A stretch of 63,375 bases of DNA, the filler included, from Stramenopiles sp. TOSAG23-6 (lineage: Eukaryota), in the NCBI GenBank assembly GCA_900128565.1. It is 10 parts of 10 records of this genome, joined end to end, with 100 filler letters (N's around TTAATTAATTAA, not from the genome) between each part and the next. Parts side by side here need not be neighbours in the genome. Positions count along the whole stretch, not along the records: positions 22,468 to 33,572 come from LT636280.1; 9 more parts are not named here. The stretch is one strand, 5' to 3'. The translations under genes and the position numbers were made by a program. This document shows, piece after piece, positions 1,353 through 63,375 of this stretch; positions within the stretch are counted from its first letter, which is position 1, and every line of letters begins with the position of its first letter. The notes under the pieces are model-generated. The model saw only the letters and a list, made by a program, of their open reading frames with translations. It had not been told where the DNA came from and did not search any database.

Positions 1353-1455
1353 NNNNNNNNNNNNNNNNNNNNNNNNNNNNNNNNNNNNNNNNNNNNNNNN
1401 NNNNNNNNNNNNNNNNNNNNNNNNNNNNNNNNNNNNNNNNNNNNNNNNNNNNNNA

Positions 1456-7400: not shown

Positions 7401-7483
7401 ATCGTGGGGATGTTTTGCTTAATATTAGTCAAGAGAAACCAATCACAACAGTAACTAGAGCAAATGCATCTGCTGCATTGTAA
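1456..7483 (+). CDS. Giant type I membrane/surface protein with EGF/laminin-EGF and furin-like Cys repeats, DxDxDG (TSP3-like) Ca-binding repeats, putative Ig (He_PIG-like) domains and a C-terminal TM helix
   Basis: Intronless ORF of about 2000 aa with CSGNGVCDDG EGF motifs, DNDNDGLHD repeats, LPDGLSLNPTTGVIQGTP, and hydrophobic LWLWILIALLLLCCLCC near the C-terminus. Confidence 0.85.
4202..5080 (+). repeat. Near-identical intragenic tandem repeat, 321-nt period, about 2.7 copies
   Basis: GATGGTGTA..AATGGAACTGATCC recurs at 4202, 4523 and 4844. Confidence 0.9.
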
Positions 7484-10455: not shown

Positions 10456-11136
10456 ATGTTAGGTGCCTTTGCAAGAAGGCAAATTTATTTGAGTGTTCGA
10501 CATGTCAGGTACTTTTCTTCTCCTAGTGTTGTAGTAGTTGGTGCATCTGTTATGGATTTGATTACGTATGTACCAAGACTCCCACAACTTGGTGAGACCT
10601 TACATGGTTATAGTTTTGAATCTGGTTTCGGTGGCAAGGGCGCAAATCAAGCAGTATCTGCAGCTCGACTTGGGTCATCTGTGGGACTTGTGTCAAGTGT
10701 TGGTGATGATGTGTATGGAAAAATGACAATAGACAATTTTCATGACCAAAATGTCAACGTAGACAATGTTGCTCTTATCCAAGGTAGTATGACCGGTGTG
10801 GCACCAATAAGTGTCGATAAAAATGGCAATAATTCTGTTGTTGTTATACTTGGTGCAAATTCGTCAATTACAAAAGAGTCAGTCAATACAGCAGAAAAGA
10901 TGATTTCAAAAGCAAATATTTTACTTGTACAACTTGAAATTGAAAATGAAGTTACAAACAAGGCTTTACAACTTGCCAAACAATATGTATGTTTTATTTT
11001 TTTTTTGTTTTCGAAAAAAAAAAAATCGAATTTATTTTTTCATACGAAATTTTGTACCTAACATTTTTTTTTTTCTGAAATATTTTTCCAAAATTCATGG
11101 AATTCTATCTATACTCAATACAGCTCCAGCCCAAAT
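10456..11136 (+). CDS. RBKS: Ribokinase, PfkB family (3' partial; intron 10987-11098)
   Basis: GGKGANQAVSAARLG, VGDDVYG, TGVAPI, LVQLEI; the splice gives LAKQY-GILSILNTAPA. Confidence 0.92.
10987..11098 (+). mobile_element. Introner-like GT-AT intron
   Basis: GTATGT..CATACGAAATTTTGTACCTAAC..AATTCAT; contains no AG; removal restores the ribokinase frame. Confidence 0.85.
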
Positions 11137-11180
11137 NNNNNNNNNNNNNNNNNNNNNNNNNNNNNNNNNNNNNNNNNNNN

Positions 11181-11192
11181 TTAATTAATTAA
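11181..11192. other. Artificial contig spacer N..TTAATTAATTAA..N (also about 22412, 33617, 44819, 56011, 57494, 58976, 60458, 61939)
   Basis: Identical six-frame-stop 12-mer inside N runs; genes are truncated on either side. Confidence 0.95.
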
Positions 11193-11291
11193 NNNNNNNN
11201 NNNNNNNNNNNNNNNNNNNNNNNNNNNNNNNNNNNNAGGTACAAAATTTCGTATGAAAAAAAAATCGAATTTGAAAAAAAATAAAACATAC

Positions 11292-19715: not shown

Positions 19716-21548
19716 CTAAGGATCTTTGACTAAATTAATGAAGTTTCTTTCAATATTCATCAATTCTTCTTCGATCAGAACACCCCCTGGACCCCCGAGA
19801 TCAGCAGCTGCCTTCTTTGCTTCCATAGCAGCGCGTTTCTCCCGTTTCTGTGCATCTCTTGCAAGAGTCAATAAATTCTTTTCTCGCATAAATTCTCTCT
19901 CCAGCATTGCTCCCATCGCTGGTTTTTCATTTCCTTGAGGTTTCCATAAGCTATCGCTTAACTCTAAAAGCGACACTGTGCCACTATTATCACCAATTGC
20001 AACAAGTTGAACGGAAGCCTTATTATTTTGGCTATTAGAAATCGCAATGGAAGACAACGCATCGTCACATACTTTATGCGAATATGCGACCTCATTTTGC
20101 CTGAAGAAGTAATCCCAAACATCGACAACACCATCTTGACGGGCGACAAAAAATACCCCGGGTCTTGTTGGAGACCAACAACCTGCAGTTAAATACGATT
20201 GATGATATTTTGTAGTCATGATTGGTGTTTTCAAATCTTCTGTCCAAATACGGGCTGTCCAATCACCCACATGTATCTTGGAAAAATACTTCAAAAAACA
20301 AAAAAAATTGTTAGGTACAAAATTTCCTATAAAAAAATAAATTTGAAATTGAAAAAAAATAAAACATACAGTCATAAAATATTTTGTGTGAACTGGATTT
20401 CTCTGTATTGAATATATTGGAGCATGGTGCTTGCCAGGTCCATCTGAATATATTGATACACCATTTTTTGTTTTTTTGCTTCTCTTATTAATCGACGCAA
20501 CGATTCCTTGTTCGGTTCCAACTAAGTACTTATGAGGTCCAGCTTCTGAGTTATAGGCCATACAAGATGCACCATATACTTTATCAGTGCCTTCTAGGGT
20601 GATCCGTTCAACTGGCTCATTTAATCTTCGAGTATCCCACCACAATATTTGCCCATCAGTAGAACAAGAAACACAAGAAGTTCCGGTTTTACTTTGAGGC
20701 CATTGGACGTCATATACTGGATCATGATGCGATGTCTCAATTTGACTTGTTGAAGTCGCACTCTCACTGCTTCGTCGATCAAAGGTGCAAATCAAACCGT
20801 TATACGAACCACCGACAAGGACTTCAGTATTCTTTGGATTGAATCGGAGAGCGCATAATGGCGAATCAGGAGTTAACGTCGACTCTGGTGCATTAGGTTT
20901 CTGAACGTCCCAAATATATGAACTTACAGGTAAATTTTTTTGAAGCAGTCTGGGATCTTGAAATTGTAACACAGAATACGAAACAGCAATTCTTGTTGGT
21001 CCATCAGGGATCCAATCAATCGTAGCTGCTGTGCGACGCATAGAACATGGGTCACGAAGGACAGCCAAGCCTTTTGCCGAAGGAGGTTCTGAAGAGTGAT
21101 CCTCCAAGAGTTCGTCAAAATATGTTTCATAAATATTAATTGTGTTATTTTGTTTGACTCCCATTTGTATGACAGGTCCAAGTTTGGAAACGGAAGATCC
21201 TAGTGGCTCTGCAGCTTCTGTGCTTCCTTTTGTCTTTCCACCCTTTTCCCTTCGTTTTCTGTATCGTACCAACGCAGCTTCATCATCTATGTCAATCTCT
21301 TGTGGCCACCCACCTTCATTATGCGTTTGTCCCTTTTCACCCATAGCAACAGGTTTTGTAGTCACTTTAGACACCGATAATTGTGGCGCGGTGTCTAATG
21401 TAACATGTAAACTTTCCTTTCTTAATAAGGAAACACCTCCATCACTAGAAGATATAACTTGCGCTAAAACTTCTGCGGGCATGTCGTCAAATTTTAGTTC
21501 TTTTCCAAAATGTCTTCGGGGTTTTGAGTACTCATAGACGAGATCCAT
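19716..21548 (-). CDS. DNAI2: Axonemal dynein intermediate chain 2 (WD40; ODA6/IC69-like)
   Basis: MDLVYEYSKPRRHFG, HNEGGWP, KQNNTINIYETYF, SHHDPVY, VGDWTARIW, WSPTRPGVFF. Confidence 0.92.
   Translation of the reverse strand: MDLVYEYSKPRRHFGKELKFDDMPAEVLAQVISSSDGGVSLLRKESLHVTLDTAPQLSVSKVTTKPVAMGEKGQTHNEGGWPQEIDIDDEAALVRYRKRREKGGKTKGSTEAAEPLGSSVSKLGPVIQMGVKQNNTINIYETYFDELLEDHSSEPPSAKGLAVLRDPCSMRRTAATIDWIPDGPTRIAVSYSVLQFQDPRLLQKNLPVSSYIWDVQKPNAPESTLTPDSPLCALRFNPKNTEVLVGGSYNGLICTFDRRSSESATSTSQIETSHHDPVYDVQWPQSKTGTSCVSCSTDGQILWWDTRRLNEPVERITLEGTDKVYGASCMAYNSEAGPHKYLVGTEQGIVASINKRSKKTKNGVSIYSDGPGKHHAPIYSIQRNPVHTKYFMTVCFIFFQFQIYFFIGNFVPNNFFCFLKYFSKIHVGDWTARIWTEDLKTPIMTTKYHQSYLTAGCWSPTRPGVFFVARQDGVVDVWDYFFRQNEVAYSHKVCDDALSSIAISNSQNNKASVQLVAIGDNSGTVSLLELSDSLWKPQGNEKPAMGAMLEREFMREKNLLTLARDAQKREKRAAMEAKKAAADLGGPGGVLIEEELMNIERNFINLVKDP
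20271..20369 (-). mobile_element. Introner-like GT-AT intron (99 nt, read through in the ORF track)
   Basis: A 33-aa Phe-rich insert splits FMT|VGDWTARIW; GTATGT..GATACAT. Confidence 0.9.
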
Positions 21549-21916
21549 CGTAGAATAACCTTCTTAATTGTAGGTAATCTAAATCTAAGAATGTGGCAAT
21601 TAATTAAAAATATATTCTTCCACGTTAGTCTAAGAGATCTTCTTTCAAAGGTTTTGGAGGTACATACTCAATGTAACCGCGTAGAGAATTGTAACGCCAA
21701 AAATCCAATTAGGTACGAAAAGTTTGTATGAAANTATATCCAACGATCAGAATTTGATTTGCACGATAGTACAAAGACTAGCTACTACAAACAGTTGTAC
21801 CAGTATTGATCACAACATTGATCACATTGATCTGAGATATCAAGTCTATTTTCTATCGTACATTTGCTAAAAGCAAGTAACTTACAGTTGAGCTCAACTT
21901 GAAAATATCTCATTCA

Positions 21917-22356: not shown

Positions 22357-22573
22357 GTACGTTTTCANNNNNNNNNNNNNNNNNNNNNNNNNNNNNNNNN
22401 NNNNNNNNNNNTTAATTAATTAANNNNNNNNNNNNNNNNNNNNNNNNNNNNNNNNNNNNNNNNNNNNTTTCTGCATAGATCGTGCAATTTGGATTTAGAT
22501 TCAGAGTATCCCACAACTTTTTCAGTACTTCATTATTGCTCCACTATTTTATAAAAAGAGCAAAAGAGCAAAT

Positions 22574-25500
22574 ATGTGTCATATGTTACTACTAGTAATA
22601 TTTTCTCTTTTTAGAGGCACTCACTCAGCTCAAGAGTTAAAACATTATGAACATTATCGCACCCAGCGTCACACCAGCAGCAGTGTTGAACGACCCTTAA
22701 AAGTATTGCAGTATAATGTATACAATTTTTACGACAATGATTGGTACCATAGGATGAATTTTGAAGAAAGCAAACAACATCGAAGCTTTGCGCAACAAAT
22801 GAGAATTATCAAAGAGTCAGACGCAGATGTTGTTGCTCTGGAAGAGGTTGTATTTAAAAGGCCCGATGGACCTCTACAGACAGCTTATATTTCAGAAAGG
22901 AGATTTCGGCTTGTTATGAAGGCGATGAAGTATTCGATCTTTTATTGTGAAGCTTCGCGAGATTTCGATAACCCTATAAATGGAAAAACGGCACTTTGGA
23001 ATGTTCTTGCCATCAAAGATGAACTTTCCCCCAACTTACATCCACCTAAAACTCTAGTATTAAGTACACAAGATGAAGAACGTAGATGTATATTTTCATC
23101 ATTAAAAAAAAAATATTTTTTTGTACCAAATTTTTGTACCTAACAAATGTTTTTTTTACCGAGAAAAAAAAAATGTTTTCACTATACATGCGTTGTTCAA
23201 GCACACTTTTACTATGGAGGGATAAAAATCACAGCAGCAGCAACTCATTTGTCATTTGGGGAAGTTTCGTACCAAGAAAAAAACCTAGTCAATTTTATGA
23301 AACCATCACGACCATCACTTACAGTATCTTCACATCAAATAATTATCGGAGATTTCAATCATTCAAAAACGGACCTAATATTGTTAAACAGGCATTACGA
23401 AATTGATGAATTTATCGGGAGTACAGGTAATAAGAGAAATCTTAATGGTGAAGCCATAGACCTAATATTTCATACAAAAACGTTGCAAAGTATTGGTAGA
23501 GCTGAAGCTATCAAAGGGTCTAATGTACGTTAATGATGAATTTTAAATTTATTGTTCATTCAAATGTTCAAATGTGTATTTTTTCTTTGCATTTTTCGAG
23601 GAATTGTTTTTGACCAATGCCGAATTTCTACATTTTTTTCATAATACATGTACATTCAGATCATTTTGCAATTCAGCAGTCATTTAAATGGGAAGATACA
23701 CCGTCAAATTCACAAGAGAGAAAGGAAGGCAAATCACGTTTACAGGAACTTATCCTTCAGAGAGTAAGAAAAGTGCAAAATGCTCTACAGAAAAAGTCTT
23801 TACCACAATTACAGCAGGAACGTTGCTGTGTAATGATGCAACTTCCTCAGAGATGTTTGCCTTTAGCGATGCCAGTTTTACCTCTTTGTACCCTTCAATG
23901 CCCTGAACTGTTGACATGTGTCGACAAATCACAGTTAAAACCACCACAACCAAAGCCAGTCAGGCAATTATTACTATGTAATGACACACAGAGTAGTTGT
24001 ATGTATAATCTTCATCATAAATTTAAAATTTATTTTGTTTTCCTAGAAAATTACTTAATGTTTTGTACCTAACAAAAATGAAAATTTTATGACATATTTT
24101 TCCAAAATACATCTGCAGTAAAGGAGTACATTGTAAAAGCTATTTTTTCTGGAAAATCTTTCCCAAGAGATGTATTAGAGAGTTTAGTTAAACAAAATCT
24201 TTTATATCAAAAAGATGTGGAGTTGATATTAAAAATGCAAAAATTACAGACAAAATCTTGTGTTCTTGCAGGTGGTGGTAGAGAGGTCAGTGGTGGTGGT
24301 TTTGGTGGCGGTGCTAGCATGCGTGTTGATGGTGGTGCTGCTGTTGCTGCTGTTGGGGGTGGTGGCGATCGTACTTCTACTGTCCGTTTTGGCACTCGTT
24401 ACGATCGTGCATCAGCTGGTGGTGGTGGTGGTGGTGCTGCTCTTGTCGCTGCTGTCGCTGATGTCGCTCGCGGTCAACTTTTTTTTCCTGGTCTTACTGG
24501 TCTTTTGGCTAGTATTGGTGGTGATAGAGGTGAACGCAGGATCTATCAACCAAATGGTATTTTGTATCTGGGTCACTCAATTGGTGGTGGAGGTGCCAAA
24601 AATGTGCTTCTTCGTATTGTCAAAAGTATGAAATTAGGTACATATCATGATAACAAATCGTTTTTGAAAAAAACAGGTCACAATAAACATAGTAGTAACG
24701 ATCACGTCGCATATGTTACACCACATCTTGAACAAGAGCCACAACCAATGACTATTGAAAATACTATAATCATCTCTCCTGATGCTATTAGCAGACATGA
24801 AAATAGCTATTGGTTTAGTCAGGGTTGGCTGTATGGTAAATTGTCAGGTAATCCAATTGTTGCAGCACGAGAAAATGGTTCAAACATTATTATTGGATCT
24901 CGAAACGGGGGTAAACGTGTAGTATGTAGAAATCTTGAGTATGCATTTGAAGATCCAGTGTCTCCAGAGATTAAAAGTGCTGAATTTGAAGTTGACATTG
25001 GAAGGCAGGGAGGCGAAAAAAGTTGTTATGAAAGCCAACCCGGTAATAATGATGATGCAGCATTATATTACAGTAAAATGTGTTTCCAACGACGTCAAAA
25101 ACTTGATCATGTCTCAACAAAAGTATGCCAAGATGTAATTAAAAAAATGCTCGAAACTGGTTATTACACAAAAGGAGTTAAATTTCATAATTTTGTCGGG
25201 GATTTTGAAAAGACACTCGGTGGAACTGATTATAGACATGGCGAGGCTTGTTTTTGGGGTGGTTTGGATTTACGCAATGTTCAGCGCGTTGACTTATTTA
25301 CAAGGACAAAGGATGAAGAACAACAATTAAAAAACCAACTAAGAATGCAGGGGACAACAAATGTTCATGTGAATGATCGAGATGGTTGTAAGAATTTTTA
25401 CAATTCTCGGGCTCGAAAATATCAACCATTGAAAACACCCGCGAGTAAAAGAGCAAAACGGATTCATGACGTTTTGGAAAATAATAAAATTTACTATTCC

Positions 25501-26232: not shown

Positions 26233-27551
26233 ATGCCAGCGAGAAGGAAACGTGCATGTAATGCACAAGAAAACATAGATGCTGGAAACAAGAGGACAAA
26301 AAAGATTTCTGAAAAAAAGACAAAGAAAGTGTCCAAAAAAAAATCGAAAAAGACCAGAGAACGTAGTGTTAGTCGAGACGATGACGACTGTGATAGTATG
26401 GCAAACAAAAAGCAGAGACGACTCAGTACAGGTCCAGTAAATATATCTCTAATGGGATTAAATTCCCATGAAGAAAAGTCTGTTGCTGAAGAAGAAAAGG
26501 TTGTTGATAAAATTTCAGAAAGAAAAGTGTCAAAGAAATCCAAAAAAAGTACAAAGACCAAGGCCAATAAGAAAAAACAAAAAATCCAAAAAGAAGCAAA
26601 GGACGCTACGTCTGATGGTGACAGTACATCACTTGAAATTCAAGATACTACTACGGCATCAGCAACGCTACATTCTTTACAAAATATTGTTTCTATTTTA
26701 AATGAGACACTTTTACCGCCATCAAACTCTGAATCGAAACTCCGTCAAAAATTGGAAGAATTGCAAGCCAATTATGATGAGTTGCGAACACTCCGTGAGA
26801 CTGAATCCGAAAAACAGTTACATAAAGCAAAAGAAACGATAAAGAAATTACAATCCGCAAATGAGTCCTATTTAGCTTTTTTCGATAAGGAACAAGAAAT
26901 TTCAAACCCTAACCCTACTGAATCTAAAAATTCAAAAGATGAGATTTTATTGGAGACTGAAAAAAAGCTCGCTGCAAAAAGCTACGAAATTAAGGTTATG
27001 AGAATGTTAACTGGCCTATATGTTAAAGCAGATGAGTCTAATCATAAAAAGTTTCTTTGCACTTCAATTTGTCACAGTCAATCGAGAGCAAGTGAGTTTG
27101 CAATTGTTCTTCCTGAGGATGATGTACGTTTTCATTTGAATATTTTTTTGGTACGAAATTTTGTACCTAAACAAAAAAANTTTTTTTTTTTTTTTNGATT
27201 TTTTTTTTACTATAAAAATCCTCCACCTCACTTTTTTTTTAATTTGTCATATATTCCCCCAAATAAATGATTCAGTAGAGTTCGTGGCCCGTAAGAATGT
27301 CAATCTTTTACCAGATTTTTTACAGGAGCCAATTGCTTTTTCAATGGAAGATGTACGTTTTCAAAATTGAATTTCAAATTTATCTTTTTTTTTTCGTACG
27401 AAATTCCGTACCTAACGAATTTTGACTACATTTTTTTTTCACAATACATGCTCCTGGTGTTATATCACAGGTAACGCATGCCCTTCGCTGGGGCGTTGAT
27501 GACGAGGAGGAAGGCAGTGGAGATGAGAGTGGAGTTGAAAGCACCGGTTGA
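26233..27551 (+). CDS. Monopolin Csm1/Pcs1 (Titan9)-like kinetochore protein; introns 27124-27268, 27353-27449
   Basis: Coiled coil YDELRTLRETESE, then MLTGL and LPDFLQEPIAFSMED-AP, typical of the Csm1 RWD C-terminus. Confidence 0.65.
27124..27268 (+). mobile_element. Introner-like GT-AT intron
   Basis: GTACGT..core..AATAAAT; phase 0 join. Confidence 0.75.
27353..27449 (+). mobile_element. Introner-like GT-AT intron
   Basis: GTACGT..GTACGAAATTCCGTACCTAAC..CAATACAT. Confidence 0.8.
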
Positions 27552-29144: not shown

Positions 29145-29958
29145 TCACAACTTCGAATCCATACTTTCTTCTGAATAAACACCCATATATCCAGGAATCA
29201 ATACTCGTTCCATTGTACCAAATATAATATTTTGAGGTACAGGTTTTCGCATCAAATTAGACACAATTTTTTCTTTCACTTTTTCTGAGACAAAAAGAAT
29301 TTCAACATTTTGTGGAACAGTTAAATTGATTTCATGTTGAAAGACAGCTTCGCCATCCCAATTTGTAATGAAAGGGTTACGATTTGGAAATCTATTTACC
29401 ATTGCTTTGGTGTCACAATCACCAACGGTACAAGAGTTAACTGAATCAGTGGATACATATACACCAGCTTTGTTCATTTTCCACTCCTCGAGATAGCCTA
29501 CAGAATGGACCCAACAGCACTTATTTCCACCATCCATTATCATTGCCATTACTTCACTAGTTTTATCATTTGTTGTTATGGTAGATATATTTGCAACAAG
29601 TGAATTTCGCCCAATTTTTCCGAATTGTTTCTGTGGGTTGATGAAAAAACTATCNGTATGNTTTTTCTNTTATGNCACCTGAAATAATGATGAGTACTTC
29701 ATCAATTATCACTGAATGAAGCGTAGTTTCTTGGAAAAACATTGGTGAAAAATAAACTCCACCTCCAAAGCAATAATGTTCTTTCACCTTTCTATTATCT
29801 GGAGAACGTAGTTTGTATCCGTCCTCGGCAATTTGTAAAAGAGTATCAATTCTAGTTTTATGAATAAAATATATACCACTTTCTCTTTGAATTACATCAG
29901 CACCACTAATACAGTAGACTATAGATAATGCAAGAATGCTAAATAGCCAGATATTCAT
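29145..29958 (-). CDS. Secreted protein with an ADP-ribosyltransferase-like domain (apparent frameshift in N-containing bases about 29655-29675)
   Basis: Signal peptide; YFIHKT, GVYFS, GEAVF; two ORFs meet in a low-quality stretch. Confidence 0.5.
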
Positions 29959-30230
29959 TATTCAGACTAGTATGCAGCAATTCAGAACCATAAATTAACG
30001 AATATTATGTTTATCTTATTTGTAATAGTAAAATAAGAGAGGACGAAGTGTGGCCAACTCGAAAAGAGAGACACAAACCAAACGCAAAGGCTAAATCAAA
30101 TGGTTTTTTTGTTTTGAACTTTTTGAGTTGATTGATTGGCCCACACTCTAAAAGAGACGCTAAAAATACTCTAAAAGAGTGTGTTTACTTCTCAAAGAAT
30201 GCTTGTAATGCTATAGAAATACTCCGAATT

Positions 30231-33200
30231 ATGGGAGCGTCCAATTCTCATCTAAGTAAAGTAGACGAATATCTTGTTGACCAAGTTTGTCTGTGGAGTG
30301 GTTGGTTGTTAAAGTCTAAAGTGCAAAGAAACTGGACTCGACGTTATTTTGAGATATATTCCAAGATTCCTTTTGGTTCTGTTGATAATGTTACATCCGT
30401 TCTAGTATACAGAGTTTCTCCAGATGGACCAATCAAAGACATTATAAAACTAAGCGAATTTTGTTGTTTTTCCAGGATTGCAATAGAGAAAAATGCTAAT
30501 GACAACCGAATGCTAGTGCTTGTTACCCGGGAGCAAGTATGGCAAATGAAGTTTGTATCTCCTGAACAGGAACCAAAATTTTCTGCTGCCCTTGCTCGAA
30601 TAATCCCTTTTAAGTCCGTTATCAAAGAAGGATGGATCGAAAAGTTCAGTTGTAAAATCGGAAGTGTAGCTGGGCTTGGAGAAAATGATGGAATTTTCCC
30701 TGGAAAAATATCTCAGGATACTAATCTCAATCGTGTTTCTTCACCTTCTTCATCATCTTCTTCATCATCTGCTGGTGGTAAAGGTAATTTATCAAGTAGT
30801 ACATGCAAGCAAATTGGGTCGACTACAAATCCTTCACCTAGAAAGCAGAAAACACCGTTGGAAGAATCTCTGAAAAGTATTCGAGAAACTCTGATGGGAG
30901 AGTCAGGAAGCTTCAGACAAAGATTATTCGGTTTACGATGTACGTTTTCAAAATTGAATTTCAATTTTTTTTTCATACGAAATTTTGTACCTAAGAAAAA
31001 AATTTCAAATTTTGAAAAAAAACAAATTCACAATACATCCGAATGGAAGCGTCGATATGCTGTTTTATTAGAGTCGAGTACTCTGTTATATTTCACGAAT
31101 GAAAAAATGCAAATTTTACGTGGTTGGATGGATCTCAAACACTGTAAAAATATTAGTTATGCATATAGTACAATTGAGAATGGAAATGTACATTTTCATA
31201 ATCAATTTCATTTTGTTTTTTTTTCATACGAAATTTTGTACCTAACAAAAAAAATCAATTTTTTTTTTAATATTTTCCAAAAATTCATCGACCAGAAATT
31301 TCCTTTTATGATTTGAGACTTCCTCCCAAAGTTTATCATTTTCGTGTACCTAATGATAGTACAGATATAAATAGCGATATTTATATCGATGAGATGAATC
31401 CTAGTAGAGAGCCGTTACGCGTTGCAGAGTGTACCTTTTCATTTCAATTTTAAATTTATTTTTATTTCGTACGAAATTTTGTACCTAACAAATTTTAGTT
31501 TTTTTTTTTTGAAATATTTTTTCATAATCCATGGCTCTCTGCAATGAATGAAACTGTCAAGACTTGTAAAGAGTCTTTAAGTACATCTTCAACTGTATCT
31601 TCAGATATATCTTCAAATACGTCACTGAATAGTTTAGAGTCTGTAAATAAAGCAAAACTAAAACAATTAAAAAAACTAAAAAAACAAAAAAATGTTAAAA
31701 AAACTAAAAACAAAGCTTCAAAAATGAAAAACATTTCTTTTGTTTTAGATCAAAAACAACCAAGAAGAAGACATAAAAAAATTTCAGCTGGATATAGAGG
31801 TATGGCAAAACGTCGAAGTGCGAGAGGTGTCATTCGCTTGCGTGAAGCTGCAGAGAAAGATTTAATGTATACAAAAGAATGTTCGACAAACCCTAACTCA
31901 AACCCTAACCCTAACTCAAATCAACAAAAACTTAAATGTAATAATGATGATGAACATGGGCAAGAGGATACTGTTTTCTTGGATGATGATTCAATTATAA
32001 ATGATTCTATCAAAGAAAATACACAAAATATACAAAATAGTGAGGTAAGATTAGATAAGAATCAAAATAATCAAAATAATCAAAATGAAAAAATTCAGAA
32101 AAAAATACACAAAAGAAATCAAAAACACGAAAATCTAGGAAAATCAAATCATTCAAATGGTGGTGATGTCATAACACGTGTGAAAGTTATTATTCAAACG
32201 TCATCAAATAAAGGAATATCATTAGAATCACAAGCACGAATGTTAAAAAATAGTATTATTTCTGAATATGGAAGAGAAATTTTTGAAAGGCGAAAATCCG
32301 AATTCGAACAGCTATTGCTACAAGCTGCAGTGAGTAATACAAAACTTAATAAGAAGAATCCGAGCGATATTGTTGATGATGATGATACAGTTAATTGTAC
32401 AACAAAGATTAATGATGATGATGTTGTTGATGATGAGACAGTTGATTTTAAAACAAAGATACCAAAGCAAAACAAACAGGAAACAAATAATGATACTTCT
32501 CAAACTCGTCAATGTTCTAGTGCAACGTTGTACGTTTTATTTTTTTTTTTACAGAAAAATCGAATTTTTTTTTCGTACGAAATTTTGTACCTAACAAATT
32601 TTACAAAAAAAAAATTTCACAATATATGTACAATTCTTCTTCAAATGATAATACACAAACAATAGATGATAAAATTCGACTTTGGTCTTCTGGGCTTGAT
32701 TTTCTATCCCTTATCGAAAATATCCATATTCCTATATTTGGTTTTTCTGTATGTCACTCTCTCATAGATTTTAATTTATTTTTTTCATACAAAATTTTGT
32801 ACCTAATGAATTTGAATTTATTTTTTTTCATACAAAATCTCTCTCATGAATTTTAATTTTTTTTTCATACAAAATTTTGTAAAATTATTTTTTATTTATT
32901 TGTTCATATTTTATGCTTTACAAAATCAAGGAAAACAAATTCACTTTAAAGGTCCAGAGGTTGGGGAACTCGTCACACTTCGTGACATTCGGCGTACATT
33001 TTATATGAATTTCTAATTTTTTTTTAAATTTTTTTTTTTCGTACGAAATTTCGTACCTAACGATTTTTTTTTTTTGGTAAAATTTTTTTTTTTCACAATA
33101 TATGTGGCTATCAATTTGCTCTACGTATTTGCCATCCGGATAAGCAAGGGCCTAATGCAAGTGTTGAACAGTTACAACGCTCTGCCGCTGTGTTTCGATT

Positions 33201-33291
33201 GTTGCAAATTAGATATGAAGTTTTAACAGAAACATTCAAAGAAAATGGCAGTGAATCATTTTGTAGAACTTTATCACCCTGGTTGGGATAA
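30231..33291 (+). CDS. Putatively myristoylated PH-PH protein with a C-terminal auxilin-like J-domain; 7 exons, 6 GT-AT introns
   Basis: MGASNS; SGWLLK..WTRRYF; EGWIEK..WKRRYAVL..EWLSAM; DIRRGYQFALRICHPDK; all joins in frame. Confidence 0.8.
30940..31038 (+). mobile_element. Introner-like GT-AT intron (99 nt, read-through)
   Basis: GTACGT..core..CAATACAT. Confidence 0.8.
31188..31288 (+). mobile_element. Introner-like GT-AT intron
   Basis: GTACAT..core..AATTCAT. Confidence 0.8.
31431..31532 (+). mobile_element. Introner-like GT-AT intron
   Basis: GTACCT..core..AATCCAT; T+GG rebuilds the PH-domain Trp. Confidence 0.85.
32530..32627 (+). mobile_element. Introner-like GT-AT intron
   Basis: GTACGT..core..CAATATAT. 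Confidence 0.8.
32749..32914 (+). mobile_element. GT-AT intron with internally triplicated core
   Basis: TTTTTTTCATACAAAA occurs three times; phase 0 join. Confidence 0.65.
32994..33103 (+). mobile_element. Introner-like GT-AT intron
   Basis: Perfect palindrome GTACGAAATTTCGTAC at 33041-33056; joins DIR-R-GYQ of the J-domain. Confidence 0.85.
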
Positions 33292-33389
33292 ACTAACCCT
33301 AACCCTAACTAAAAAAAATACGAAATATCTAAAAAAAAAATAAAACAAATTTATATAACTTTTGGTAGAATATTTTATGTATATACTAA

Positions 33390-33494
33390 CTATAAGCGAC
33401 TTCTATATTGCCTTGAAGAATGTTTTTCATTTCTATTTGATTGATTTTGTATGAGATGTGCCGCTTCGTGGTAGTCTTGCTCTACAGCTAAGTC
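33390..33494 (-). CDS. Terminal exon, ankyrin-repeat-like (partial)
   Basis: DLAVEQDYHEAAHLI..stop directly after a family acceptor AAACACAT. Confidence 0.5.
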   Translation of the reverse strand, partial: DLAVEQDYHEAAHLIQNQSNRNEKHSSRQYRSRL

Positions 33495-33727
33495 ATGTGT
33501 TTTGTAAAAATATTTCAAAAAAAAATACTTAAATTTGTTAGGTACAAAATTTCGTACGAAAAAAAAAATCGANNNNNNNNNNNNNNNNNNNNNNNNNNNN
33601 NNNNNNNNNNNNNNNNTTAATTAATTAANNNNNNNNNNNNNNNNNNNNNNNNNNNNNNNNNNNNNNNNNNNNTACGAAATTTCGTACCTAACGATTTTAA
33701 TTTTTGAAATATTTTTTCATAATCCAT

Positions 33728-36403: not shown

Positions 36404-39400
36404 ATGCCTCCTGTTAGTACTCTATCAGATCAATTGGGTGGCTCGAATATGCCCGATCCACACCAATTTTCACAATTGAAGCGAAAACTTGAGGCAATGG
36501 ACTATTTCCAACCTTTAGGAATCGATACTGTACCTTTGGTAGAAAAACTTCTCCTTGACCTTGTAGTGACAACCGAAAATTACCAAGCCATGGTAGGCAA
36601 AGTAGAGGAGTTACAAAAGAGCAGTATATTGGCGAACTCACAGTCTTTACCATTACGAAAGCACAATGCACGTCTTACTCGGGAAAACAATAGTCTTCAC
36701 GAGGAGCTCATCAAAAAAACAGAGGAGCAGCGAAAGTCAAGTCGCAAAGCTGATGAAGTTTTGCGTCCTTTGCAGGAAAAACTCGCAACTACAGAATTTC
36801 GTTACGATATGACCAAGAAGGATTTAAAAAGGTTAGAAAAAGAAAATACTGGGCTAAAACTTCGCTGTTCCCAATTATTGCAACAAAATGAAGTGTTAGT
36901 TGCTACACCTGCTCCAAGTATACTAAAGGGAAAGAAGAAAAAATCGCGAGATTGGTCTGGCCCAAAGCAAGTTTTAGAGAGAAGTCGNAGTGCTGCTCGT
37001 AATTCTTCGCCTGCAATGCGGCAAATTAATCTTCAAGAATCAAATGGTAATCAAAATGAACGCCATATGAAATTTAAGTTAAAGCAGGTTCGGTCAAAAG
37101 TTCAACCTAAAAATTCAATCAACCCTAAAAATGCTAGTATAATCGAAAAATCTGAGATGATAGTGAATAGATTACAGAAGCGAAATGATGAGTTACAAAA
37201 TGCGAAAGATGAACTANTAAAGGCAGTAGAAATTAGAAATGCTGAAATTTCTCGTCTTGGTCGTCGACTTGTGGAAGAAGGTCCGAAGGGAGGTGGTGGT
37301 GATATTGGGGGTGCTCAATCCGCTCATATCAACGAAGCAAACCAAAGAATTGTAGAGCAACTTAATGACCAAGTCGACTTCCTCAACGAGCAACTTGCAA
37401 GAAAGGATAAACAATTAAAATCATCCAGTGTAAAAAGTCGNGCTTTTGATGCGAAATGGTTAAAATTACGTGAGCAATTTGCTGCACAAGAAAAGAAGTT
37501 ACAAGATACTCGTGCAGCACTTGTGGAGCTTAAAGTAGAAGCAACTTCATCGGGTTTATCTGATCCAAAATCTGAAAGATCTAACAATTCTCTGCGAAAT
37601 GAATCTGAAAATGCTTCAGAGAGAGAGAAGTCTTTACTCGAGACTGTNGCATTAACACAAAAAAAAGCACAAGAAGCCGCAAATTTGTCTTTACTCGCCG
37701 CAGCCAAAAATGAAAATCTTGTTTCCGAAAATGCACGCATTGCAGATGTCATTGAAGCGTATCGAAAAGATAAATTAATATTTACTGCTGCACTTCAAAA
37801 AGCTGAAGAAAATGATGCAGAGCTTCGACTGAATATCGAACTTCAATCAAAAGAAATTGAAGATTTGAAATGTGAAAGAGATCGGACAAATGCAGAATTA
37901 AAAAATGTGTATGCAATGAAGGCTGGCATGAAAGACGATGAGGAAGCTTATCAGGCAGCCGTCATGCGCTTACAAAGAAAAGGTTTTTCTCAAAGTGATC
38001 AATTAAATAACTTAAAAAAAGATAAAAAATCTTTAGAAATTGCTCTTGATGCGCAATCACAGGATATTACTATCATTCAACAATCCCTCAAAAATTCTCA
38101 AAGTGAAAATGACAGACTTGTCGAAGAATTGGAAAAGTGTGCGAAAAAACATTTGAAAATTTCTGAGCGTTTGAGTTCAAGTACGTTTTTATTTTTTTTT
38201 TTTTTTTCAAATTTATATATTTTTTTTCATACGTAATTTTGTACCTAAACAAAAAATATTTTGTTTTACATATTTTTCCTCAATACATGTGATGCTGAAG
38301 CAAGACATACAAAAAATCTATTTCGACAAATGGAAGGAGATAGAGATAGAATTCGCAATTCACTAGCANTAGCNGAGGATCAATTATTAAAAAATATAGA
38401 AGAAAAGAACATGTAAGTTTTCATCATCATCATGAAACAAATATTTTGCTTTATATAGAAGATTTTGTACCTAACAATGTTATATATATATAGATATATA
38501 TTTCAAAATACATTTCTGATCAGAAAATGAAATATGCAATAGAAGCTCATGCAGTAGCCAAAGCTGAAATGGAAGCAATGCGTGATGATCGTGATGCTTT
38601 GCAGGAGAGAGTCTCTGCCCAATCAATTGAAATTGGAAGAATTGTTGCTGAAGCGGATGGATTATCAAAATTACAAAATCTTCCGGATGTTGTAGCAAAT
38701 CTTGAAAACCTCGCTCAGAAATGGAGAAATGAATCAATGAACATTGCACAGGAATTAAATACGTGTCAACGCCAGAAGCAGAGATTGGAGAATCAATTAG
38801 AGAATATACGTTTTTATCATTCATTTCATTTTTTTTTACTAAGAATATTACGTACCTAACAAAAACATCAAATGTTACATATTTTCCCGAAATACATGCG
38901 ACAATTGATAAAAATCGATCTGAATTATCTCTGAAGGATTGTAAAGAAGAGCGTGATGAACTTGATAAAAGTTACCAAAAACTTGTTTATGAATTAGAGG
39001 AGAAATCTGATTCATATTTTGCGTTACAGGCGCGAGAAAAAGAATTACAACAAATACACCGACAAAATATGGAGGCTCTCAATCAAGCTCGTTTAAAACA
39101 AAGAGATCAAGAAGAGGCTCTTATCGATGCACAACAACGTGGAATCAAGACATCTGAGAATGCAACTGCAGCTGCGAAACGTTTCGAAGCAATGAAGCAA
39201 CGTTGTGAAGTTGCGCAAAATGAAGTTGTGTCCCTATTGGCACAACTTAGATCTGAACAAGCTCGTTGTTCTGATGCGCTCACAGACAGAGAAAATCTCG
39301 CGAGGGAATTAAACACCAGTCGTGCTTTAGAAGAAAGATTGAAACTAGAACTTCAAGGTGCTACAGGTTTGGTCGGATCAGAAAAAGAAGTTGCGCAAAA

Positions 39401-43619: not shown

Positions 43620-44690
43620 ATGATGGAGCCATCAGAATCTCCTCCTTCACACAAGGTACAAAATGTCGGGATACTAAGTGATACTTCACCCCCCCCCAGT
43701 ACCACCTCCTCGACCTCAAGTGTTTGAAAAAGCACGTATCGAACGTTCACGACGAGACGCTAGTATAGAACGTGCTCGTGACGCAAGGGAGGCACTTGCT
43801 GATCTGAAACTTGAAAAGGAGCCATCAGCAGCAAAGAAATTGTTTTCTCGTTTCCTTCAAAATGTGACACCACGAACTAAAGCTCGGAGAGAGGCGAAGA
43901 GTCTTGCGCGTAAGAAAAACTTGCGCCTTGAAAAGCAAATCGCCGATAACACTCGTGAATGGGTAGAAGTTGTTTTGCCTGATATTAAAAATATGTTATC
44001 TAAGCCTAAACAATTACAACGACTTTGTTTTGCGGGGATTCCACCCAAATGTAGGTCCAGAGCATGGCTTGAATTAATCGGAAATCGAATGCAAGTGACG
44101 CCAGAGCTACTGAAAATATTTAGCGGACAAGCTACTATNTTGCGAAATAAGATAATGGATGAAAATAGACTTTTAAATAATACGAATAAAAATAAACCTC
44201 ATATTGAAAATATTAATGAGACGAAAACTAATGAGACTAATAGCAGCAAGCAAACATCAGATATACAACACAATCAACAGTTACGAAAAAAGAGTAGTTG
44301 CACACAAAATAGAAAAGAAAGTAGGTTTTTTTTGAATTTTTTTTTCATAGTAAATTTTGTACCTAACAAAAAAAATATTTTCATACCATTATAGTTCCAC
44401 TTATGTATTGATTTCAATTTTTTTCATAGAAAATTTTGTACCTAACGATTTTTTTTACTAAAAAAAAAAAAAAAAAAATATTTTTTCACAATACTCCCAC
44501 TAGAAAAGAACCAAAACAAATGGAAAAATCTCCACCGTCCAACCCTAACCCTAATACTCCCACTAGAAAAGAACCAAAACAAATGGAAAAAACTCCACCG
44601 TCCAAAAGTCGTAGATTTTCTGATACAATCACAAGAGATAAAAATATATTAGATTTAGGTCGATTGAAAAGTTTGCGTCTTATTTTTCAT
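43620..44690 (+). CDS. TBC-domain Rab-GAP, TBC1D12/14-like (partial; probable indel in the C-run near 43690; family introns about 44321-44492 and from 44691)
   Basis: EWVEVVLP..LCFAGIPPKCRSRAWLELIGNRMQVTPEL. Confidence 0.75.
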
Positions 44691-44956
44691 GTATGTTTTT
44701 TTTTTTTCAAATTCAATTTTTTTTTTCGTACGAAATTTTGTACCTAACGATTTTTTTTTGAAATATTTTTCCAANNNNNNNNNNNNNNNNNNNNNNNNNN
44801 NNNNNNNNNNNNNNNNNNTTAATTAATTAANNNNNNNNNNNNNNNNNNNNNNNNNNNNNNNNNNNNNNNNNNNNGAAAAATATTTCAAAAAAAAAATCGT
44901 TAGGTACAAAATTTCGTATGAAAAAAAAACGAATTTGAAAAAAAATTAAAACATAC

Positions 44957-45947: not shown

Positions 45948-48425
45948 ATGAATTCACTGGAGACACGAAACAATGTCATTCCTTCATTGTTTGAACTTTC
46001 CACACAGCAGTTAAGAGCACGATGCCGTACAGACTTATTGGTTTTGATATCATCTCTGACAAAAAATGCTCGTTATGTTAGTTGTGCCAAACGTGCAGGT
46101 CAACTTCATGATATTTTCCTAAAGTTAGCTAGACCCTGCTCTCGTCAAAAGTCATTCACCGCACTCGATCATTGGTTATTCCTTCTAGACGCTTGGAAAA
46201 CTACTACACTTACTGTCTGTCGCACAAATATAACTTTCCATCCATCTTTATCTCCAGGTTTGTCGCGTTTCTCACTGTTACGAAAACTTGACGCGAGCAA
46301 CTCATGTGTTCGCGATGACTCCCTTTGTCATATTGCTACTTCACTTCCAAATATAGAATGGCTAAATTTAGATGGATGTCATATAACCGATGATGGTGTG
46401 TTTGCATTATCACAAATAAGTCTACCTTACTTGCGTATTTTGGGTCTCCGCTGTCGCAGGGTCAATATTGTATGTTTTATTTTTTTTCGATTTTGAATTT
46501 TTTTTTCGTACGCAATTTTGTACCTAACAGTTTTTTTTGAATTTTTTTCTAAAAATATTTTTACAAAATACTTGCATCTTGTAGAGCTCTCGTATTGAGT
46601 CCTAGCCAAAATAGCCAAAATAGCCAAAATAGCCCAAATAATAATATGACTTCGGGTAATTCTACCCAATCGCACACATCAAATAGCTACTCTGTCCAAA
46701 GTGCTAACAATACCACATTCATTTCGAATAAGACTGACAATATAATAATATCACAGAAAAACCTAAAACTTCCATCTTTAGAAAAACTTTCTCTCAATGA
46801 AAATGTAACATCTTGGATTTATAACAAACCTGCCCTATCAAAGACAGAATGTTCAACAATTAATATTGACTTTTCAAACATTCAAAAAATATCCCTCTCA
46901 AAATTAAAAAGAGTGTTGCGTGCATATGGCCGTAGTGGTGAAGCACTTGAAGGTTGTAGAAAATCTCTAATTAAACGCGTGTATATTTTATTTTTTTTTC
47001 AAATTCATTTTTTTTTCGTAGTAAATTTAGTACCTAACGATTTTTTTCAAAAAAAAAATATTTTTCACAAAATAGTAGTGTTATCAAAATGCAACATATA
47101 GCTGATAGAAAACTGAAACAAATGTTATTATATAATGATACTTCAGAACATAAATATATCCCTCGGCCTGTATTGTCCGTTGTCCTCTTGAAATTTCAAT
47201 TTTAGTTTTTTTCCATAGTAAATTTTGTACCTAACAAAAAAAAAAAAATTTTGAAATATTTTTTCACAATTCTTAAAAACTAAAAATATTTTTTGTGTAT
47301 GTACAGATACAAACACAGTCTGTAATTATCCACAGTGCTCTGTACATGCATCAATCCGGCCTGGCTTGTCCGGGTTACTAATGGGAGGTTGTAGTGGAAA
47401 CTGGGTAGGAAAAAGTGTAATTTTAAACATTGAATTTTTTATATTTTTTTTTTTTCGTACCAAAATTTGTACCTAATAAAAATATTCAAAAAAAATCAAA
47501 AAAAATATTTTTTCACAATACAAATCACAAACAAAAATGAAGTCACTATATGGACGAGTTGTTGGATTAGAATGGAGAAAGGTAAAATACAAGGTGGTGG
47601 TATATCATATACGTTCTCCTGATGCATTTCAATTAGTTTTCATAGAAAATTTTGTACCAGAACAAAAACGAGTTTTTTTTTANAAANTTTTTTTTTTTTT
47701 TTTGGTAAAAAAATTTTGTACCTAACAATTTCTTTATAATTTTTTTTAATTTTTTTTACAATACATTTTGGCGTAATATTCAAATCCCATTTTTATTAGA
47801 AGGAACTTATGCATGTCATATATGTGATACTAAAAAAACAAAACAAAGCACGTGTAACCCTAACCCTAATAAGATTTTAGTCAGTGATGAAAATGATACA
47901 CCCAAAAATTCCCTGAATGATTTTCATACAAAAATAGTTACAAAAAAAAAGATGAACCCTAACCCTAATTTTTCTTCAAAAATAATTACAAAAAAAGAAA
48001 TGACTTTGATAAAAAAACATATAGGAAAATACCGAAATGAAATTCAATATAAAGGAACATTAATGCATATAAAAACTAATGATTTTCATAGTAATTTAGA
48101 CAGTAAAAAAAAATATTCATGGGCTTTCGTAGGTATGTTTTCTTTTTTAATTTCGAATTTAGTTGGTTTTTTTTTATAAAAATTTTGTACCTAACAATTT
48201 TTTGTTTTTGAAATATTTTTTCACAATATATGTAAATATAATAATGGCACAATTTCTTTGAATTCCGTATGTGCAGACTTTCGTACAAAACAATTCTTAG
48301 GTACAGATTTAAATACAAAAACGAATGATGTTGTAAAGCACGAAAAACGTCGTTTGAATAGTTTTGAGTTTAGTGATTCACAAAAAGAATTTGCCCGAAA
48401 AAAAAAAAAAAAAAAAAAAAAATGA
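45948..48425 (+). CDS. LRR-containing hypothetical protein with about 6 family introns (some boundaries uncertain)
   Basis: LRKLDAS..LPNIEWLNLDGCHITDDGV LRRs; open exons between core-bearing inserts. Confidence 0.55.
47609..47766 (+). mobile_element. Family intron with AT donor and duplicated core
   Basis: ATACGT..CAATACAT; T+TT joins GGIS-F-WRN. Confidence 0.6.
48133..48231 (+). mobile_element. Introner-like GT-AT intron
   Basis: AG|GTATGT..core..CAATATAT|GT. Confidence 0.75.
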
Positions 48426-54579: not shown

Positions 54580-55783
54580 ATGGCCGATAAAGTTGATACT
54601 CGCGTTCCAGTGACTGTACTTACTGGATTTCTTGGAAGTGGTAAGACTACTCTCTTGAATTACATTCTTAAAGTCCAGACTGGTTTAAAGATTGCTGTTA
54701 TTGAGAATGAGTAACTTAACTCCGAACATCTTATTTTCAAAGTAACTCGTTTCTATCATACACATCATTTGTACTTATATAAATGTTTTATTATATTGTT
54801 TACTCTATACAGGTTTGGTGAAGTTGGAGTTGATGACGCGCTTGTTAGGAAGAAATACGACTCAGAGGAAGAAATTTTCGAAATGAATAATGGTTGCATT
54901 TGCTGCACTGTTCGAGGTGACTTAATCCGTATTCTCGGAAAGATTTTCAAGCGCAAGACAAAACTTGACGCTTTGATTATTGAAACCACTGGCTTAGCTG
55001 ATCCAGCTCCAGTGGCTCAAACCTTTTTCATGGATGAAGAAATCAAGAGCAAAGCACGTCTAGATGGTGTGTTAACTGTTGTCGACTGTGCGCATATTAT
55101 TCAACACTTAGATGAGATCAAACCAGAAGGTGTTGAAAACGAAGCTGTAGAACAAGTCGCTTTCGCAGATCGCTTGCTTGTGAATAAAACAGACCTCGTT
55201 GATGAAAAGACTTTGGCAGAGGTAAAGAAACGTCTTAAGAGTCTTAATCCTGCAGCGAAACAAATTGAGTGTCAGTACTCACAAGTCGACCTTAAAGAGC
55301 TGATGGGACTCGGAGGATTTAATTTGAAACGTGTTCTCGAATTTGAGCCAGATTTTCTTGACGATGACGGTGGAGAACACATGCATGATCAATCAGTCTC
55401 CTCAGTAGGTATTCGAGAACCTGGGGAGCTCGATATGGATAAATTAAATGCCTGGCTTGGTAAATTATTGAAAGAGGACGGCGCAAACATTTATCGCATG
55501 TACGTTGTAACCCTAACCCTAACCCTTTTTTTTTTTCTAACACTTTTTTTTGACCATTTTAGAATTTCTATTTTTTTTACATTACATGAAAGGAGTGTTG
55601 GCAATCAAAGGTATGAAGGAAAAGTTTGTCTTTCAAGGAGTTCACATGCTTTTCGATGGAGAGCCAATGGTAGGAGAGGAGTGGCAAGAGGGCGAGACGA
55701 AAACGAACAAATTTATCTTTATTGGTAAAAACCTTAAAGAAGATGAACTACTTGCATCCTTTCGCGCTTGTATTGCAAAGTAA
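54580..55783 (+). CDS. ZNG1: COG0523/CobW-family Zn metallochaperone GTPase; exons 54580-54710, 54813-55499, 55588-55783
   Basis: [51 protein letters not shown]. Confidence 0.92.
54711..54812 (+). other. Canonical GT-AG intron
   Basis: GTAACT..TACAG; rebuilds ENE-FGE. Confidence 0.9.
55500..55587 (+). mobile_element. GT-AT intron carrying (CCCTAA)n instead of the hairpin core
   Basis: GTACGT..TTACAT; AT+G rebuilds IYR-M-KGVL. Confidence 0.85.
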
Positions 55784-56066
55784 TTGTGGAATATCCTCAA
55801 CTTTTGTGATGGGAAATGGTGCATTGATGCATCTAATACGATGATGATATGAATGAAGTATGTATGAGTGTGTAAGGCTAAAAAGTGTGTGACGTGTATA
55901 TGTATGTTTTATTATTTTTTTTTAACAAAAAAATCGATTTTTTTTTCGTACGAAATTTTGTACCTANNNNNNNNNNNNNNNNNNNNNNNNNNNNNNNNNN
56001 NNNNNNNNNNTTAATTAATTAANNNNNNNNNNNNNNNNNNNNNNNNNNNNNNNNNNNNNNNNNNNN

Positions 56067-57449: not shown

Positions 57450-57603
57450 NNNNNNNNNNNNNNNNNNNNNNNNNNNNNNNNNNNNNNNNNNNNTTAATTA
57501 ATTAANNNNNNNNNNNNNNNNNNNNNNNNNNNNNNNNNNNNNNNNNNNNGGTACAAAATTTCGTACGAAAAAAAAACGAATTTGAAAAAAAAATAAAACA
57601 TAC

Positions 57604-58931: not shown

Positions 58932-59031
58932 NNNNNNNNNNNNNNNNNNNNNNNNNNNNNNNNNNNNNNNNNNNNTTAATTAATTAANNNNNNNNNNNNN
59001 NNNNNNNNNNNNNNNNNNNNNNNNNNNNNNN

Positions 59032-60413: not shown

Positions 60414-60572
60414 NNNNNNNNNNNNNNNNNNNNNNNNNNNNNNNNNNNNNNNNNNNNTTAATTAATTAANNNNNNNNNNNNNNNNNNNNNNNNNNNNNNN
60501 NNNNNNNNNNNNNGTTAGGTACAAAATTTCGTATGAAAAATAAATTCGAAATTGAAAAAAAATAAAACGTAC

Positions 60573-61741: not shown

Positions 61742-61995
61742 ATATATATTGCAAAGAATATTTAAAAATTTTGAAATTTGTTTGTTAGGTATGAATGTAA
61801 ATATTTGTTTTTAACCCTAACCCTAGTTTTTATTAGTTTCAAAAAAAAAAAAAAAAAAAAAAAAATTGAAAAGTTTAAAATTTTTGTTATTTTTNNNNNN
61901 NNNNNNNNNNNNNNNNNNNNNNNNNNNNNNNNNNNNNNTTAATTAATTAANNNNNNNNNNNNNNNNNNNNNNNNNNNNNNNNNNNNNNNNNNNNT

Positions 61996-63337: not shown

Positions 63338-63375
63338 AGATTCTCCAAGTCTAAACCACTCTCTTTCCTTTGTTG

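Follow-up and report, generated by a model that had tools for sequence, protein, structure and literature searches.

The DNA analysed here, referred to as the window, is a stretch of 63,375 nucleotides (nt) from the uncultured marine protist Stramenopiles sp. TOSAG23-6 (assembly GCA_900128565.1), joined from ten contigs. It contains a multi-copy family of short T-rich introns that are removed as GT..AT. The 3' end of these introns is AT, and AG is not used. Near the middle of most copies lies a 16-nt palindrome directly followed by CTAAC, which an initial annotation of the stretch had described as a conserved hairpin acting as a structured branch site or protein-binding stem. A conserved RNA structure is not supported by the copies in the window; the hairpin reads as the decaying palindrome of a repeat. 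The explanation considered rather likely is an introner-like mobile intron family, in which the right half of the palindrome and CTAAC form a selected branch region while the full palindrome is a relic of the ancestral element.

The element is about 93-125 nt long, with one copy of 178 nt, and occurs at least 35 times in 63 kb. It consists of 75-86% A+T and is T-rich on one strand (T/A 1.48), which holds for both flanks of the palindrome. From 5' to 3', a copy shows GTAYGTTTT(C), a variable AT-rich stretch that is often AATTTCAAATTT, a T-run ending in C, the palindrome as (G/A)TACGAAA and TTTTGTAC, CTAAC, a T-rich stretch and finally (G)AAATATTTTTYCAMAATACAT; the conserved end of the element is TTTYCAMAATACAT, 33-46 nt past CTAAC. 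At the 5' splice site (consensus GTAYGTTTT), G1, T2, A3 and T6 are found in all 30 visible 5' ends. The 3' terminus has A-2 and T-1 in 20/20 introns, a count taken from a curated list that is not fully independent, as introns 23525, 31188 and 32749 were placed using reading frames. Position -3 is C in 16 of these introns, giving YAT, and C-10, A-9 and A-7 are each present in 18. The first exon nucleotide after the intron is G in 14/20, and the exon before it ends in T in 27/30 copies and in AT in 17/30 (background 9.6%). Sequence similarity between copies stops at the GT..AT borders, the flanks belonging to unrelated genes, and 31 of 33 copies lie in sense orientation relative to the longer flanking frames.

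The copy holding the main palindrome is a complete intron of 110 nt at 32994-33103 (+), the removal of which as GT..AT joins the flanking open frames. All of its parts lie on the plus strand: the 5' splice site GTACATTTT at 32994-33002, the left palindrome arm GTACGAAA, variable in the family, at 33041-33048, the right arm TTTCGTAC, usually TTTTGTAC and with an invariant GTAC, at 33049-33056, CTAAC at 33057-33061 with a predicted branch A at 33060, and the 3' terminal motif CACAATATAT with its YAT end at 33094-33103. CTAAC is located 43 nt from the end of this intron.

Removal as GT..AT was examined by means of reading frames, RNA and protein homology. For the frame test, 5' ends were set by match to GTAYGTTTT and 3' ends by match to TTTTCACAATACAT, without use of the frames. 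In 13 of 14 clear rows, joining at GT..AT connects the frame that dominates upstream with the one that dominates downstream, against a chance expectation of one third; one intron is counted twice, so that the result corresponds to 12 of 13 unique introns, and the single miss is a mis-picked 5' site. A polyA metatranscriptome contig (X8 record 25; 208 nt, depth 2.7) covers 30790-30937 and 31037-31096 and skips the 99 nt in between. Given the repeated AT, this skip of 30938-31036 is the predicted 99-nt intron 30940-31038 (+). Over most of the stretch, no intron-bridging RNA contig is found among the matches listed, and long 'skips' linking one element copy to another in the contig layout were discarded as repeat artefacts.

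Short AT-rich elements that interrupt coding sequence and end in something other than AG might also be taken as non-spliceosomal, lost either by DNA elimination as in ciliates or through an endonuclease guided by structure, a route proposed for euglenid nonconventional introns. This is extremely unlikely here. GTAYGT, strictly kept at the 5' end, and CTAAC are signals of the spliceosome, there is no stable helix between the element ends, and DNA metagenome contigs (X4 records 11, 15 and 16) retain the element, with record 11 continuing into intron 30940-31038. Ciliate-type excision from TA to TA was rejected, as it predicts a skip of 93 nt at 30940 and not the 99 nt seen.

The homology evidence comes from the open reading frame (ORF) 19719-21563 (-), which encodes axonemal dynein intermediate chain 2 (IC2). 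Its 99-nt family intron at 20271-20369 (-) is stop-free and in frame, and the 33 residues that it would encode are missing in 8/8 aligned homologues, which read ...KYFMT|VGDWTARIW... across the site. AT-AC borders were rejected for this intron, since they would yield FMN and not the conserved FMT. A ninth sequence, the public predicted coding sequence P0124, is the closest protein to IC2 (91% identity, labelled as marine stramenopile in its source) and has two residues (IH) more than the others where the intron lies. They would result if an AG located 6 nt upstream of the ..ACAT end had been taken as the acceptor, as expected of a predictor trained on GT-AG introns. At the other named genes homology is less informative. 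The RPN2 junction lies in a variable acidic linker, with only residues ~264-719 on the contig; the second exon piece of the PH-domain gene has no Pfam match; and the alignment of the importin-like ORF with PDB sequences ends before the intron. Introns 30940-31038 (+), 20271-20369 (-) and 58007-58099 (-) are 99, 99 and 93 nt long, multiples of three and stop-free in frame. Their retention would add 31-33 mostly hydrophobic residues and would not truncate the protein.

An AG is absent between CTAAC and the intron end in 14/20 introns, and the first downstream AG is in frame in 6/20, as expected by chance. No GT-AG intron was recognised in the window, a weak negative as full gene models were not built. 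The AG-independent 3' end proposed in the initial annotation is borne out by the uniform AT ends, the frames, the RNA contig and the IC2 homology. The narrow spacing between CTAAC and AT, also described there, was recovered as well: in 17 of the 19 complete copies with the motif, the second A of CTAAC lies 33-46 nt before the terminal T, and in the remaining two the distance is 62 and 120 nt.

Being invariant and narrowly spaced, CTAAC is the obvious candidate for the branch site, judged by its sequence. The branch might instead be located within the 3' terminal motif (TTCACAAT...), in which case GTACCTAAC would have another role, for example that of a splicing enhancer. Some intron-poor protists have fused branch and 3' site motifs, and in the present family the terminal motif is well conserved at C-10, A-9 and A-7 and is kept in an intron that lacks GTACCTAAC. 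CTAAC, however, fits the strict branch consensus and is more conserved than the 3' motif, and a branch in the terminal motif would leave an unusually short 9 nt to the 3' end. This alternative is considered very unlikely, and CTAAC is retained as the candidate.

A sequence search of the window located the perfect palindrome GTACGAAATTTCGTAC at 33041-33056 and again at 61253-61268. With up to two mismatches, GTACGAAATTTYGTAC has 23 matches in the whole 63 kb compared to 0.06 expected, a number reached in 0/100 dinucleotide-preserving shuffles of the window. Copies are found on both strands once oriented by the adjoining CTAA. The commonest form is GTACGAAATTTTGTAC, and ATACAAAATTTTGTAC is found at 32787-32802; both the positions of the perfect copies and these variants had been correctly reported in the initial annotation, as had the adjoining CTAAC. 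The right arm together with CTAAC (TTTTGTACCTAAC) has 42 matches at up to two mismatches versus 3.1 in 50 shuffles, of which ~36-38 are true copies judged by context. A scan of metagenome contigs with a 21-nt exact core returned 0 loci and hence no additional copies for a covariation analysis. No paper containing 16-mers of the palindrome was found by sequence search of the literature.

To assess the hairpin, 33 cores (29 distinct rows) were aligned without gaps and the proposed 6-bp stem was scored against column shuffles. The underlying proposal is that the two arms pair in the precursor messenger RNA and that the stem serves to present the branch site or to bind a protein, allowing an AG-free choice of the 3' end at a set distance. 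The position of the palindrome next to CTAAC in most copies and the narrow distance to the 3' end agree with this, as does a consensus G-T pair that is tolerated on the sense strand only; pair 5-12 is found as GU in 13, AU in 8, GC in 3 and UA in 1. A covariation check, which had been recommended along with the proposal for genome-wide copies, turned out negative for the 33 window copies. Paired stem cells amount to 73.6% versus 72.5% in the shuffles, with 65/500 shuffles reaching the observed value and only one double-sided change, and a partner shifted by -2 gives an equal share of paired cells. G1-C16 is unpaired in 18/29 distinct rows and C4-G13 in 10/29.

The predicted energies are in line with this. 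The stem has -5.4 kcal/mol in its perfect form (2 copies), -3.3 in the commonest form (8 copies) and -1.2 in the ATAC form (6 copies), and 11 of 33 copies, which otherwise appear to be working introns, have no stem or an unstable one, the homology-verified IC2 intron (ATAGGAAA) with its unpairable left arm among them. In minimum-energy folds of 12 whole introns (-6.4 to -15 kcal/mol), the arms pair with each other in two, 30940 and 31431. Several folds contain an alternative helix, TTTTGT/ACAAAA, that places CTAAC in a loop; one pairs the 5' GUACG with the right arm, and the intron ends pair in two (48133, 23088).

The two arms also differ in conservation. Off-majority cells number 58/232 in the left arm and 8/232 in the right arm, and 37/116 versus 0/116 in the outer GTAC. 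While GTACCTAA is invariant and CTAA present in 33/33 aligned cores, these cores were found via the right arm/CTAA motif, which biases the count. The asymmetry is also seen in a set defined by the 5' splice site only, in which 22 of 28 candidate sites have a core: the right-arm GTAC is intact in 22/22, whereas the left arm reads GTAC in 9, ATAC in 7, ATAG in 2, GTAG in 1 and is unrelated in 3. The best-conserved unit is therefore the right arm plus the branch-like motif and not, as had been assumed, the whole palindrome. Intron 23525-23649 has the family ends but no core at all.

The G-U and A-U variants, originally read as the signature of an RNA stem, have a simpler explanation. CpG sites mutate fast, and the palindrome contains two of them. 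The commonest variant is a change from CG to TG at the second CpG, and in the 'A-U' variant CG has also become CA at the first. This pattern agrees with CpG decay. Identical transitions, GTACG to GTATG or GTACA, prevail at the 5' splice site, a place without any proposed stem (+4: C 16, T 13; +5: G 23, A 6; n=30). T at palindrome position 12 is common to 28/33 copies and is most simply one inherited C-to-T change at a CpG rather than many independent ones. The freedom of the left arm to decay implies that pairing of the arms is not needed for splicing. A working RNA stem is accordingly regarded as improbable. Of the structured branch site, the CTAAC part stands as a candidate, while the stem part is not supported, given the lack of covariation and of a stable stem in a third of the copies.

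Another possibility is that the palindrome acts at the DNA level, as a binding site or cruciform for the copying machinery, with splicing additionally holding the right half and the left half decaying in immobile copies. Such a role would suit the perfect 16-nt palindrome, which has two GTAC sites and lies near the middle of a multi-copy element, and among the 33 cores perfect and near-perfect forms are commonest and degenerate ones rarer. The element ends, including the flanking AT, form a short inverted repeat, ATGTA..TACAT, in keeping with the excess of exons ending in AT. On the other hand, this complementarity extends over ~5 nt only, and neither a transposase gene nor a consistent target-site duplication or long terminal inverted repeat was seen in the window; the IC2 intron is preceded by ACT and ends in CAT, with no duplicated AT. 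The T-richness of both flanks on one strand also shows that the element is not a foldback, and a foldback of the whole element was rejected on this ground. A role of the palindrome at the DNA level is considered unlikely, though with a real chance of being correct. A Helitron was rejected too, as neither the ends nor the position of the hairpin fit.

The preferred explanation, an introner-like family with a relic palindrome, would work as follows. A short T-rich intron has probably multiplied through the genes of a marine stramenopile, each copy bringing its own 5' splice site, palindrome, CTAAC and TTTYCAMAATACAT end, so that GT..AT removal would restore the frame. Selection would keep TTTTGTACCTAAC as an extended branch-site region, with the branch predicted at the second A of CTAAC. 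The palindrome most likely derives from the ancestral mobile element, in which it may have been a signal for spread at the DNA level. The 3' end would be chosen without AG at a YAT that is presumably read from the conserved terminal motif. Possible modes of spread are a DNA transposon selected for sense insertions and RNA-mediated insertion.

Several observations weigh against this explanation. The canonical branch-recognition sequence of U2 is GUAGUA, and pairing to it does not account for GUAC beside CUAAC; TTCAC in the 3' motif also fits the loose yUnAy branch consensus. The window copies show neither a consistent target-site duplication nor a long terminal inverted repeat. RNA support consists of one copy in one metatranscriptome contig of low depth (2.7), which in principle could stem from a strain without that insertion. 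The absent covariation has limited power, as the ~35 copies come from one window and many are related by descent, and there is one double-sided change, the U-A at pair 5-12 in the copy at 47018. Finally, the introns fold slightly better than shuffled sequences (mean z about -1.3, range -2.64 to +0.25, n=12).

A broader version is put forward tentatively, as a possibility that is more doubtful than probable: most or all introns of the lineage may be copies of one GT..AT mobile intron, and the spliceosome may have evolved an AG-free 3' choice from the terminal motif at a set distance from the invariant GUACCUAAC box. Pairing partners for the GUAC of this box could then be the left arm or the GUAY at the 5' splice site. 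GUAC is self-complementary to the latter, pairing there being speculation.

Further family introns supported by frames and spacing are located at 10987-11098 (+) and, with a degenerate left arm TACCAAAT, at 23088-23189 (+). The coreless intron 23525-23649 (+) is in frame and has the family ends GTACGTTAA .. TTCATAATACAT without palindrome and without GTACCTAAC. Frames also support the introns at 27353-27449 (+), 31431-31532 (+), 32530-32627 (+) and 38181-38288 (+). Alterations of the left arm are found in 23999-24112 (+), which lacks it (ACTTAATG) and has right arm and CTAAC intact, in 38413-38513 (+), where it is degenerate (ATAGAAGA), and in 48133-48231 (+) and 60980-61093 (-), where it is lost (TATAAAAA); all four agree with the frames. 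The same applies to 60114-60207 (-) in the gene of the proteasome subunit RPN2 and to 58007-58099 (-) in an importin/exportin-like gene. Two more copies lie at 31188-31288 (+) and 61399-61519 (-). Tandem partial core duplications are present in the introns 61187-61302 (-), 44321-44500 (+) and 32749-32926 (+). The first contains the second perfect palindrome (61253-61268); only its right arm and CTTAC are duplicated, and the copy nearer to the 3' end restores the usual spacing of ~40 nt. The last is the 178-nt intron, which carries degenerate core pieces, ends in AT and has a nearby AG that is out of frame. The copy 55902-55966 (+) begins ~120 nt past the stop codon of ORF 54715-55725, showing that copies can occupy untranslated regions or the start of a neighbouring gene.

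The window is eukaryotic, with ~35% G+C and long open frames under the standard code. The host genes of the introns are unrelated and include axonemal dynein IC2, RPN2, a PH-domain gene and an importin-like gene. Overall, the genes are cellular, encoding an OPT transporter, a UCH/EF-hand protein, RPN2, dynein IC2, PH, ankyrin/GYF and importin-like proteins, and the best named relatives of the window proteins are stramenopiles. An origin of the window from Mirusvirus or Amoebophrya was rejected, since the genes are those of a cellular stramenopile and the introns described for those groups, in the accessible parts of the sources, are of other types. The contigs are ordered by size (five of ~11.1 kb, five of ~1.38 kb), and neighbours across a linker may not be genomic neighbours. 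Each of the nine linkers consists of 44 N, TTAATTAATTAA as a six-frame stop and another 44 N (11137-11236, 22368-22467, 33573-33672, 44775-44874, 55967-56066, 57450-57549, 58932-59031, 60414-60513 and 61895-61994). The repeat breaks the assembly, as 9 of 18 contig ends lie within the element core. Rfam and tRNA scans of the window gave no matches.

The window DNA is present in seawater metagenomes and metatranscriptomes. Within 29676-33572, the summed contig depth in runs X7, X8 and X4 (DNA and RNA) reaches thousands on element stretches and single digits on exons; the intron family or its relatives are very abundant in those metagenome samples. Short telomere-like runs (CCCTAA/TTAGGG, 2-3 units) lie in or at the end of open frames at ~33286-33310 (+), ~31900-31930 and ~53100. 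These repeats are the source of the very high depth that one RNA run shows at 31886-32015 and of loose ends reading CTAACCCTAAC. In the MAP-kinase-like ORF 61942-63373 (-), the frame changes near 62330, apparently with the loss of about 18 residues that are conserved in such kinases; an assembly error, a deletion or a pseudogene could explain this. Another frame break, at ~655-670 (+) in the giant cysteine-rich (EGF / He_PIG) ORF upstream of 1310-7480, has no intron-like sequence; a frameshift in sequencing is the probable cause.

Few rules of nuclear splicing are as constant as the 3' AG. If the interpretation is correct, a family that combines a YAT end with a canonical 5' site and a textbook branch box represents a natural experiment on the choice of the second-step site and a further case of a mobile element supplying new introns. 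The first point would hold above all if an abundant, uncultured grazer of the ocean had this as its main intron type. The family introns are mis-called by gene models trained on GT-AG introns, as seen for P0124, and the proteomes of the lineage are probably wrong at many sites. Should RNA data confirm the junctions across the genome, the family would be considerably interesting; little interest attaches to the hairpin itself.

Among known intron classes, U12-type introns have the 5' consensus RTATCCTT and a branch box TCCTTAAC ~10-20 nt from the 3' end. They share with the present family a CCT.AAC-like branch motif, and the class is known to tolerate non-AG 3' ends. The comparison, which had been suggested in the initial annotation, breaks down at the 5' site, with RTATCCTT in 0/30 copies (+5 is G/A, +6 is T), and at the branch, since the box here is GTACCTAAC at the greater distance given above. 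The 5' end is that of U2-type introns (GTRNGT-like, with GTA and T6 in 30/30), and going by the sequence alone so are the branch consensus and the T-rich stretch downstream of it; the 3' end is AT in place of YAG. Yeast-type U2 introns have strict GTATGT and TACTAAC signals and are similar in their near-invariant extended 5' site and CTAAC-containing branch box. The box of the present family, GTACCTAAC, differs from TACTAAC by an extra C, and the 3' end is YAT, not YAG. Small size and AT-richness of the family would suit miniature inverted-repeat transposable elements (MITEs); its terminal inverted repeats are at most ~5 nt (~10 nt or more would be expected), and no consistent target-site duplication was found.

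Repeated non-canonical introns with palindromic motifs, for which a hairpin is proposed to aid excision, are known from Amoebophrya introner elements (PMC7789003) and euglenid nonconventional introns (PMC11282704). According to the accessible parts of these sources, inverted repeats join the intron ends there and borders are variable. In the present family, the palindrome lies inside the intron directly next to the branch motif, pairing of the ends is poor (an end-joining helix in 2/12 folds) and the borders are uniform. The tunicate Fritillaria borealis has many MITE-derived, transposon-like introns with diverse non-GT/AG borders, mainly AG-AC and AG-AT, which an adapted major spliceosome is believed to process (PMC11282704, PMC13326754, as far as their accessible text goes). 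It belongs to another kingdom, and in contrast to its diverse borders, the introns described here have a strict canonical GTAYGT and depart at the 3' end (YAT) only.

The closest resemblance is to the introners of aquatic protists such as Micromonas, Aureococcus and dinoflagellates, likewise marine, which are near-identical short introns at unrelated sites, in sense orientation, with their own splice signals and restoring the frame. The family agrees in the likeness of its introns at unrelated sites, in similarity that ends at the borders and in removal from the transcript, seen in RNA for one copy, in IC2 homology and in 12/13 frames. The accessible text on introner families of aquatic protists describes GY..AG ends, rare GC/GA 5' sites and a diverse use of duplications and repeats (bioRxiv 10.1101/2022.06.06.494994). 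Here, the end is AT in 20/20, and no clear target-site duplication or terminal inverted repeat was found. No description of a GT-AT intron family in stramenopiles was found in the literature searched, supplementary tables excluded, and genome papers on uncultured marine stramenopiles (PMC5269757, PMC5778133) mention introns in passing and no such family in their accessible parts. The known kind to which these introns belong is that of an introner-like family, and what is new is their YAT acceptors.

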